From positions 47,050 through 111,049 of the forward strand of contig CAYJVR010000003.1 in the NCBI GenBank assembly GCA_964373715.1: a DNA stretch of 64,000 nt, read 5' to 3'. Shown piece by piece: positions 62,867-64,000 of this stretch; within the stretch, counting starts at the first letter, position 1; each line of letters opens with the position of its first letter. A program made the translations under genes and the position numbers. Origin of the DNA: an uncultured Planctomycetia bacterium. Its GTDB lineage: Bacteria > Omnitrophota > Gorgyraeia > 1-14-0-20-64-10. The notes under the pieces are model-generated. The model did no database searches. It worked only from the letters and a program-made list of their open reading frames with translations, and was not told the DNA's origin.

Positions 62867-64000
62867 GTGAAAGCACAGCTCTTCCGTTCGTTGATGCAGG
62901 GGGGAAACCCCATCGTTTTAGCCGGCGCGCACGACGCGATCAGCGCCAAACTCGTGGAAAAAACAGGCTTCGACGCCGTCTGGGTGTCGAGCTTCGGACT
63001 TTCGGCCGCGCAGAAATCGATGCCGGACATGAACGTCCTGACAATGACCGAGGTCCTTGATGTCGCCAAGAACATCAACACGGCGATTAAAATCCCGGTC
63101 ATCGCCGACTGCGATAACGGGTACGGAAACGCGATCAACGTCATGAGGACAGCAGAAGAATTTTCCTCCGCTGGAATCGCCGGAATGTCCATCGAAGACG
63201 CAACGTTCCCGAAGCGTTGTTCCCTTTACCCGGGACGGCACGACCTGGTCGACATGGATGAATTCGCCGGCAGGATCCGGGCCGCCAAGAAAGCTGCCGT
63301 CTCCCCCGACTTTGTCGTGATCGCACGAACCGAAGCGCTCATCAACGGCCTTGGTCTGGAGGAGGCCATGAAGAGGGCCTCGGCTTACACCGCCGCCGGC
63401 GCAGACGCCATACTGATCCACTCGAAATCAAAATCTTCCCAGGAGGTCCTGGCTTTCGCGAAGCAGTGGGACGGCAAGGTCCCGCTGGTCGTAGTACCCA
63501 CGATGTTTCCCTCTGCAAGCGTGGAGGAGCTGGCGCAGGCCGGCTTCAAGATCATCATCTTCGCGAACCACGCGCTGAGGGCCGCGGTGGCCGCGATGAG
63601 CGCCCAGCTCAAGATATTGAAGAAGGAAGGCCGGGCGGAGGTGCTGGACGGCAACATCGCCACCCTCCAGGAGGTGTACGACCTGGTAGGCGTTCCGGAG
63701 TTCCAGGCGATTGAGACCGAATTCATCCCGGCGGAGCAGGAACCGGCCACCGCCGTCATCCTGGCGGCCGGGTTCGAGGAAGAGCTGCTTCCCCTCAACG
63801 AGGACCGGCCCAAGGCAATGATCGAGATCAAGGGCCGCTCAATCTTGGAAAGACAGCAAAATCTCCTCCGGTCGGCGGGTATCAACAACATCGTCGTTGC
63901 GGCCGGTTACAAAGCCGAGGCGGTCAATATCCCGAACGTTCAGGTCTTCCAGAACCCCAACTACCAGACAACCGGCATCGCCGCTTCCCTCTTCGCCGCG
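62867..64000 (+). CDS. PEP mutase/isocitrate lyase-superfamily enzyme (PepM-like) fused to a C-terminal sugar-phosphate nucleotidyltransferase domain. Partial: runs off the 3' edge.
   Basis: GTG start with a GGGGGA SD. The PepM-like core is [12 protein letters not shown]...[11 protein letters not shown]...[35 protein letters not shown]...VVVPT. At the PepM signature position it reads [10 protein letters not shown] instead of EDKxxxxxNS. The C-terminus [27 protein letters not shown]...IVVAAGYK is NTP_transferase-like. It has no stop in the window, so it is absent from the ORF track. Confidence 0.75.
   Translation, partial: [378 protein letters not shown]

Follow-up and report, generated by a model that had tools for sequence, protein, structure and literature searches.

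Phosphoenolpyruvate mutase-like fusion proteins with a cysteine-containing signature form a distinct clade associated with phosphonate-type gene clusters

The 64,000-nucleotide stretch of contig CAYJVR010000003.1 analysed here (the window), from an uncultured bacterium of the Omnitrophota, ends within a gene encoding a fusion of a phosphoenolpyruvate (PEP) mutase (PepM)-like domain and a nucleotidyltransferase (NTase)-like domain. The protein belongs to a large, undescribed monophyletic clade in which the signature motif reads ED[N/S/A]xFPK[R/K/Q]CS instead of the diagnostic EDKX5NS; we refer to its members as Cys-type proteins. Sequence conservation and gene context suggest that the Cys-type protein is likely a PEP mutase, converting PEP to 3-phosphonopyruvate and feeding a pathway for lipids carrying 2-aminoethylphosphonate (AEP). 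An earlier reading of the window (the original prediction) had described a variant-motif enzyme in a phosphonate-type cluster continuing beyond the window, which holds, and had further suggested lyase-type activity, an unusual domain order and channelling through the fused NTase, none of which is upheld by the analyses below.

The Cys-type clade and its variant signature

The frame is open from a GTG start at position 62867 up to position 64000 on the + strand and is preceded by GGGGGA at 62852–62857, nine bases 5' of the GTG. A Logan contig (L001), which matches window positions 60201–64000 exactly and extends 2.3 kb past the window, places the stop codon at window-equivalent 64525, yielding a full-length protein of 552 amino acids (aa) that is 100% identical to a public protein (P0001). 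The N-terminal domain matches the Pfam family PF13714 (PEP_mutase) with 217.8 bits (aa 6–249 of the 378-aa piece) and is, as predicted, collinear with PepM, based on ungapped alignments to solved PepMs; the sequence strings previously singled out, including VVVPT and ANHALRA, are all present in the translation. The closest solved relatives are the PepM of Streptomyces platensis (5unc, E=1.5e-83), the phosphonopyruvate hydrolase of Variovorax (E=2.9e-70) and the PepM of Mytilus (1m1b, E=1e-57), and an AlphaFold2 model of the protein (pLDDT 88.9) superposes on 5unc with a TM score of 0.97 and an rmsd of 1.0 Å over 287 residues.

The motif region comprises aa 109–119 (E110, 63194–63196; TGT codon of Cys118, 63218–63220). 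In the ungapped alignments to 5unc and 1m1b, A112 corresponds to Lys116 and C118 to Asn122 (PepM residues are given in Mytilus numbering), so that both predicted substitutions are confirmed and the protein lacks EDKX5NS, which is defined by Lys116 and Asn122. The motif stretch also aligns gap-free (BLASTP) with the methylisocitrate lyase (MICL) of Coxiella (MEDQVAQKRCGHRPG), the segment EDQVAQKRCGHRPG of which pairs with it such that C118 occupies the column of the lyase catalytic Cys. Thus, as originally proposed, the cysteine lies at the general-acid position of isocitrate lyase (ICL) and MICL. The K-R-C of the window protein is aligned with the lyase loop, followed by S-L where the lyase has G-H. 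By contrast, the MICL segment IFAEA, the Glu of which we take to be a catalytic residue of the lyase, pairs with the PepM-type IHSKS, placing Ser in the Glu column and His190 of PepM in the window protein.

Outside the motif, the PepM active site is preserved. W44, S46, D58, D85, D87, E114, K120, S123, R159, E161, H190 and N239 are all kept in the window protein (equivalents include W39, S41, D54, D81, D83, E110, K116, S119, R154 and H185; R154 codon, 63326–63328; H185 codon, 63419–63421), and the same residues together with D115 are conserved alike in 25 Cys-type representatives and 83 canonical PepMs. The Mg2+ site and the residues contacting the phosphoryl group and the oxo-acid are present in 25/25 or 24/25 of the Cys-type representatives. 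Only L48F, K116N/S/A, N122C, Tyr at position 125, Q130R and F276Y separate the two sets.

Profile comparisons with NCBIfam ranked the PepM model (TIGR02320, 272.1 bits) above those of phosphonopyruvate hydrolase (TIGR02321, 247.8; cut-off 374.4), prpB (205; cut-off 354), carboxyphosphoenolpyruvate (CPEP) mutase (148) and ICL (34; cut-off 276), all scores being below the respective equivalog cut-offs. CPEP mutase, oxaloacetate hydrolase, dimethylmalate lyase and lyases of the petal-death-protein type were rejected as candidate functions, with lower scores and no corresponding gene context.

The cysteine is present in all of the best 120 homologues of the window protein, all of which are fusions of approximately 555 aa with the motif ED[N/A/S]xFPK[R/K/Q]CS, in 120/120 homologues of a Nitrospira member and at all 163 non-redundant loci retrieved from species genomes and metagenomes, down to 48% identity (151 N..C, 6 S..C, 5 A..C and 1 T..C motifs). 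A scan of the metagenomes with a single protein gave nothing, whereas an alignment-based scan was successful. The Cys motif is no chance feature. According to the record names, the hosts are mostly Nitrospira/Nitrospirales, Rokubacteria/Methylomirabilota, Binatia, Acidobacteriota, Omnitrophota and Chlamydiota. The one carrier in pure culture is Nitrospira moscoviensis NSP M-1, the protein of which (WP_053378437.1) is labelled 'isocitrate lyase/phosphoenolpyruvate mutase family protein' by PGAP and 'Phosphoenolpyruvate mutase' in UniRef. Its gene spans positions 567783–569462 of CP011801.1; OZ252033.1 and OZ246888.1 are further complete genomes with a Cys-type gene.

The next relatives, taken from a library clustered at 50% identity, are canonical EDK..NS proteins, mostly fusions of the same length and domain order, with 36–41% identity end to end. 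In a full-length neighbour-joining tree, which is unrooted and does not polarize the change from K/N to N/C, the Cys fusions all group together (bootstrap 0.985) amid the canonical fusions; the sister group of this clade (0.77) displays the intermediate motifs EDNPFPKQNS and EDNLYPKNHS, the remaining tree being EDK..NS. In a neighbour-joining tree of the PEP-mutase domain only, the Cys clade is unsupported (bootstrap 0.045; pure Cys subclades, 0.38–0.73). The window protein does not fall within a bona fide PepM clade with this motif and proven mutase activity.

The NTase-like domain is fused in frame, as had been noted, with PF12804 (NTP_transf_3) matching the partial piece at 34.9 bits from aa 296; the domain itself begins at about aa 293. 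Its order relative to PepM, initially considered reversed, is ordinary: the closest relatives with the canonical EDKxxxxxNS are themselves fusions, approximately 540–560 aa long, with PepM at the N terminus and the NTase at the C terminus, the other order being seen only in Fom1-type PF01467 fusions. The best solved relatives of the full-length domain are LicC (1jyk, 2e-8) and the AEP cytidylyltransferase (PntC) Tde1415 (6pd1, 4e-7). Within the signature GXG(T/S)RX4-8PK, the second Gly, the Thr/Ser and the Arg are replaced, and the Lys is kept; across the Cys-type clade the loop reads GFE(K/E)x, without the Arg. The R15A and K25A substitutions lower the activity of Tde-PntC to <10% (PMC6697681). 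Separate NTases of the clusters, including that encoded directly downstream of the fusion gene, keep GVGKR...PK, and the fused domains of canonical PEP mutase (Ppm) fusions are likewise irregular at this loop. With G-F-E-E-E in place of the GVGKR of its neighbours, channelling through the fused domain, as envisaged by the original prediction, is doubtful; judging from its sequence, the domain is probably not the activating enzyme and may be inactive or have another role.

Table 1. Window coordinates of the fusion gene, its domains and signatures, and the adjoining upstream features
Feature	Position	Strand	Remarks
ispH (LytB) homologue, 406 aa	61496..62716	-	PF02401, 236 bits
Divergent intergenic region, AT-rich (~41% GC)	62717..62866	.	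between ispH and fusion gene
Fusion gene, first 378 codons of 552 aa	62867..64000	+	PEP-mutase domain and NTase-like domain; leaves the window
PEP mutase/isocitrate lyase superfamily domain, aa 1-292	62867..63742	+	PF13714, TIGR02320 and 5unc match
Variant PepM signature replacing EDKxxxxxNS	63194..63223	+	Ala112 for Lys116, Cys118 for Asn122
LicC/PntC-like NTase domain, first ~86 residues	63743..64000	+	rest beyond the window
Degenerate NTase signature G302-F-E-E-E...P315-K316	63770..63814	+	compared with GXG(T/S)RX4-8PK

Gene neighbourhoods

Beyond the window, L001 encodes, in convergent orientation, a 459-aa protein combining an NTase and a CDP-alcohol phosphotransferase (IPCT/DIPPS-like; L001 4362–5741), followed by a 155-aa Rieske protein (5757–6224) and the C terminus of a squalene-hopene-cyclase (SHC)-like protein, which bears out the expectation that a phosphonate-type cluster continues past position 64000. 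The neighbours do not form an ordinary 2-methylcitrate or glyoxylate cluster. The genes upstream of the fusion gene, encoding ThiF-rhodanese, pterin dehydratase, GCV_T, HhH-GPD, LexA, a DUF2490-like protein and the 406-aa IspH, are syntenic with those of an Omnitrophota metagenome-assembled genome (L004), the fusion protein of which is 78% identical. The cluster of L004 (11626–21653) encodes an HpnG-like protein (93 bits; NCBIfam cut-off, 187), HpnA (500; 368), an HpnL-like protein (161; 196), a second CDP-alcohol transferase, an AEP transaminase (AEPT; TIGR03301, 351; 361), the beta and alpha subunits of a split phosphonopyruvate decarboxylase (Ppd; TIGR03297, 175 and 109), HpnH (536; 225) and SHC (Pfam match). 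Two further relatives (L010 and L011; 71–73% identity) share this gene order. Inspection of downstream genes, as suggested at the outset, thus added an AEPT and a split Ppd from syntenic relatives at 71–78% identity. The transaminase scores 351–354 bits on the PhnW-AepZ model TIGR03301 (cut-off 360.8) and the split decarboxylase 109 and 175 bits on TIGR03297.

Gene presence was assessed by tblastn, with conservation-weighted choice of open reading frames (ORFs), and features were counted within 10 kb at the 71 loci flanked on either side by 5 kb of sequence or more (well-flanked loci). Ppd was found at 51 of these, 40 of which also carry the AEP-type class-V transaminase (Ppd and AEPT together, 40/71). 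Genes for NTases or CDP-alcohol transferases are present at 52/71, those for an HpnL-like membrane protein at 37/71, for an SCP2 protein at 28/71 and for core hopanoid functions (SHC, HpnA, HpnG and HpnH) at 17/71. Across all 163 loci, 92 carry Ppd, and none carries a second PEP mutase, each having exactly one homologue, which is of the Cys type. In N. moscoviensis, a compact and complete cassette encoding TPP_N, TPP_C, Aminotran_5, an NTase, a CDP-OH transferase and LPG_synthase_TM is divergent from the fusion gene.

Proteins with non-canonical motifs outside the Cys clade (genes at L167 5402–7009 and L168 8001–9629) were considered alongside. The gene for the sister protein with EDNPFPKQNS (P0123) adjoins those for a Ppd-like thiamine pyrophosphate (TPP) enzyme, an iron-containing alcohol dehydrogenase, an NTase and glycosyltransferases, whereas that for a protein with EDKKYPKRCS from a separate clade (P0208) adjoins genes for a class-V aminotransferase and four CapK-like ligases. 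Because of these 2 contexts, both halves of the supposedly diagnostic motif appear to vary within otherwise typical phosphonate clusters.

Several further features of the neighbourhoods were observed. AEP-pathway genes and bona fide hopanoid genes are intermingled in several phyla, namely in the Omnitrophota relatives (L004, L010 and L011) and at Rokubacteria/Methylomirabilota loci (L012, L020, L021, L024, L025, L053 and L071). Genes for a small Rieske [2Fe-2S] protein and for an SHC-like protein of half the usual size (approximately 330 aa) recur beside the fusion gene (L001 5757–6224; L004 13020–14395), including at Binatia loci without Ppd or AEPT within 10 kb (L022, L033 and L083). In N. 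moscoviensis, 2 small ORFs (174 and 185 aa; L170 8865–9918) immediately precede the fusion gene and point in the same direction; the pair is conserved in Nitrospira (family f3), is present at 33 loci and has no Pfam or NCBIfam matches.

The fusion gene shares a divergent intergenic region with ispH. The TATAAT reported for it is present, albeit at 62759–62764 rather than 62758, and the promoter scan of the region found no −35 element matching it on the + strand. A single promoter-like site scored, TTGATT-17-TATAAT on the − strand (62753→62725), which points towards ispH and the −10 element of which ends 9 nt before the annotated ATG at 62716; by sequence, ispH would be transcribed with almost no leader, unless its true start lies further downstream. 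The position of ispH is kept in the syntenic Omnitrophota relatives, the downstream genes of which include those for HpnH, HpnA and SHC. The IspH/LytB protein is approximately 100 aa longer than usual, and since its Pfam match covers residues 51–391 with a model of 267 positions, it appears to contain an insertion; homologues of 405–407 aa are found at the same position in the Omnitrophota relatives. The window (1–64000; 57.7% GC) contains no tRNA genes and no Rfam families above the gathering score.

Proposed function and competing explanations

Because Ppd is irreversible and requires phosphonopyruvate, for which no other source is visible at these loci, the Cys-type protein is likely to be the PEP mutase of the pathway. 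In such a pathway, the split TPP-dependent Ppd would pull the unfavourable mutase equilibrium, and the PhnW/AepZ-type class-V aminotransferase would convert phosphonoacetaldehyde to AEP. Activation of AEP with cytidine monophosphate would probably be carried out by the neighbouring NTases, which keep GVGKR, since the loop of the fused domain is degenerate, and the CDP-alcohol phosphotransferase would transfer the activated AEP to a membrane alcohol, with the HpnL/flippase-like membrane protein acting alongside. The identity of the domains, the variant motif and its strict conservation, the otherwise intact PepM active site, the clade structure and the gene neighbourhoods are direct observations, whereas we infer that the enzyme is a mutase, that Cys118 can take over from Asn122 the task of holding the phosphoryl group as it migrates, and which lipid is the acceptor.

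Several observations weigh against this assignment. The protein departs from the EDKX5NS rule, and its PepM score, although the best among the families compared, is below the equivalog cut-off of 319.55 bits, so that the profile comparison called for by the original prediction favoured PepM without reaching the threshold. According to a review, most authors ascribe the difference between PepM and the hydrolase to Asn122Thr (PMC7916636); since residue 122 is held to set mutase (Asn) versus hydrolase (Thr) activity, mutase activity is not to be presumed, and with a thiol at this position the enolate might become protonated or the phosphoryl group trapped. Furthermore, Ppd and AEPT are placed in the genome of the window by synteny with the relatives at 71–78% identity rather than seen directly, both genes are missing from 20/71 well-flanked loci, mostly from Binatia and some from Rokubacteria, and the count of second PEP mutases covers the 163 loci themselves.

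An alternative is a neofunctionalised enzyme, in which Cys118 would act as an ICL-type general acid/base or nucleophile and the reaction would differ from that of a simple mutase, for instance hydrolysis of phosphonopyruvate or PEP, C-C lysis of a phosphono- or oxo-acid, or a mutase reaction on a nucleotidylated substrate, the phosphonopyruvate for Ppd being supplied by a canonical PepM encoded elsewhere. The invariant Cys coincides exactly with the catalytic Cys of MICL, Lys116 is lost as well, such that ED[N/S/A]...KRC resembles an intermediate on the way to the lyase EDQ...KRCGH, the switch between mutase and hydrolase is attributed to residue 122, the PepM cut-off is not reached, and Ppd and AEPT are not nearby in 28% of well-flanked loci. 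Nevertheless, we consider this explanation unlikely. All phosphoryl- and Mg-binding residues of PepM are retained, Ser occupies the lyase Glu column with His190 in place, no second PEP mutase is found at the 163 loci despite 92 of them carrying Ppd, a hydrolase beside Ppd and AEPT would be futile, and the sister proteins with intermediate motifs are likewise found in Ppd clusters. The lyase-type version put forward by the original prediction is disfavoured in particular by the retained PepM residues, IHSKS instead of IFAEA and the best score for the PepM model. Phosphonate chemistry itself could also be questioned, the split TPP enzyme being a ComDE-like sulfopyruvate decarboxylase or the mutase acting on arsenoenolpyruvate, with a thiol suited to arsenic or sulfur. 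The beta subunit at a Nitrospira locus scores slightly higher on the sulfopyruvate decarboxylase beta model (183 bits) than on the Ppd half-model (172), PepM can process arsenoenolpyruvate, and mutase/decarboxylase pairs have been proposed for arseno-organic clusters (PMC4943196). In the closest relative, however, the Ppd model scores higher for both subunits (175 versus 168 and 109 versus 105 bits), the transaminase is almost at the AEPT equivalog cut-off, NTases and CDP-alcohol phosphotransferases require a phosphate or phosphonate, and the neighbourhoods showed no ars, AroA-like or ComABC genes, making such analogues highly improbable. Equally little credence is given to a dead or regulatory PEP-mutase domain serving as a scaffold for substrate binding or assembly: the motif is broken at 2 positions and the pyrophosphate loop of the fused NTase is degenerate too, but the Cys and the full set of residues binding the metal and the phosphoryl group show strict conservation between phyla while overall identity is approximately 50%, unlike in relaxed non-catalytic domains, and the protein is the sole candidate source of phosphonopyruvate in the clusters.

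A more far-reaching reading, which as a whole we regard as rather improbable, would combine a mechanistically distinct class of C-P bond-forming enzymes, in which Cys118 might trap the phosphoryl group as a thiophosphate, gate the enolate or give a different product, with a pathway placing AEP on hopanoids rather than, or besides, glycerolipids. Its product would be an undescribed phosphono-bacteriohopanepolyol in Omnitrophota, Rokubacteria/Methylomirabilota and relatives, the hopanoid part being suggested by the location of AEP genes between those for HpnG/HpnA and HpnH/SHC.

Relation to known enzymes and implications

The window protein shares the fold of PepM (Mytilus edulis 1M1B/1PYM; 5UNC) at 47% identity, its Mg-binding Asp/Glu set, R159, H190, K120 and S123, as well as the partner enzymes Ppd and AEPT of its clade, and differs in K116A and N122C together with the clade-specific L48F, Tyr125, Q130R and F276Y. 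PalA, the phosphonopyruvate hydrolase of Variovorax (2DUA/2HJP; TIGR02321), is the second-best match by family and structure and likewise departs from PepM at residue 122, but it keeps Lys116, has Thr at 122 (EDKTFPKDTS) and is a stand-alone catabolic enzyme that is neither fused nor encoded next to Ppd. PrpB and ICL belong to the same superfamily, and the KRCGH of MICL aligns residue for residue with the Lys-Arg-Cys of the window protein, which, at 34% identity, nonetheless lacks the Gly-His after the Cys, has Ser at the Glu of IFAEA and retains His190; methylcitrate or glyoxylate genes do not surround the Cys-type gene. Fom1 of the fosfomycin pathway is also a PepM-NTase fusion (PMC6697681), although its cytidylyltransferase is N-terminal and belongs to PF01467, whereas the window protein has a PF12804 domain at its C terminus, with a degenerate GXG(T/S)R loop. 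The Ppm-PntC (PF12804) fusions of phosphonolipid clusters, such as those of the Burkholderiales 'CDP-OH' and Group 1 phosphonolipid families (PMC6697681, PMC8942020), have the same architecture and domain order, are alignable end to end at 36–41% identity and share the cluster logic of a Ppm-NTase, Ppd, AEPT, extra PntC-type NTases and a CDP-alcohol phosphotransferase. They carry EDKX5NS, however. The Cys-type proteins occur in Nitrospira, Rokubacteria, Binatia, Acidobacteriota and Omnitrophota, with hopanoid genes interleaved in a quarter of the well-flanked loci.

EDKX5NS is the current working definition for counting phosphonate producers: a perfect match was required to call PepM by Rice et al. 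2019 (PMC6697681) and Li & Horsman 2022 (PMC8942020) and likewise in a December 2025 survey of actinomycetes (PMC12723261). Because of this requirement, the Cys-type clade was filtered from both phosphonolipid surveys; only 22 fused PF13714 proteins without EDKX5NS were reported from RefSeq (Rice et al. 2019, PMC6697681). Our full-text literature search found nothing on Cys-type PepM, Nitrospira phosphonates or links between phosphonates and hopanoids.

If the Cys-type clade is active, the published censuses miss phosphonate makers in abundant lineages of soil, groundwater and wastewater, namely Nitrospira, Rokubacteria, Binatia, Acidobacteriota and Omnitrophota. Nearly every biological phosphonate is made by way of PepM, and Nitrospira are the main nitrite oxidisers and comammox bacteria. 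The clade also represents a natural N122C/K116N experiment on the residue thought to separate mutase from hydrolase, and the cultured carrier N. moscoviensis makes the different readings directly testable. That AEP genes recur inside hopanoid clusters points to a so far unexplored connection of phosphonolipids with hopanoids and, if the proposed activity is true, the clade would matter for estimating where phosphonates come from in the phosphorus cycles of land and fresh water.

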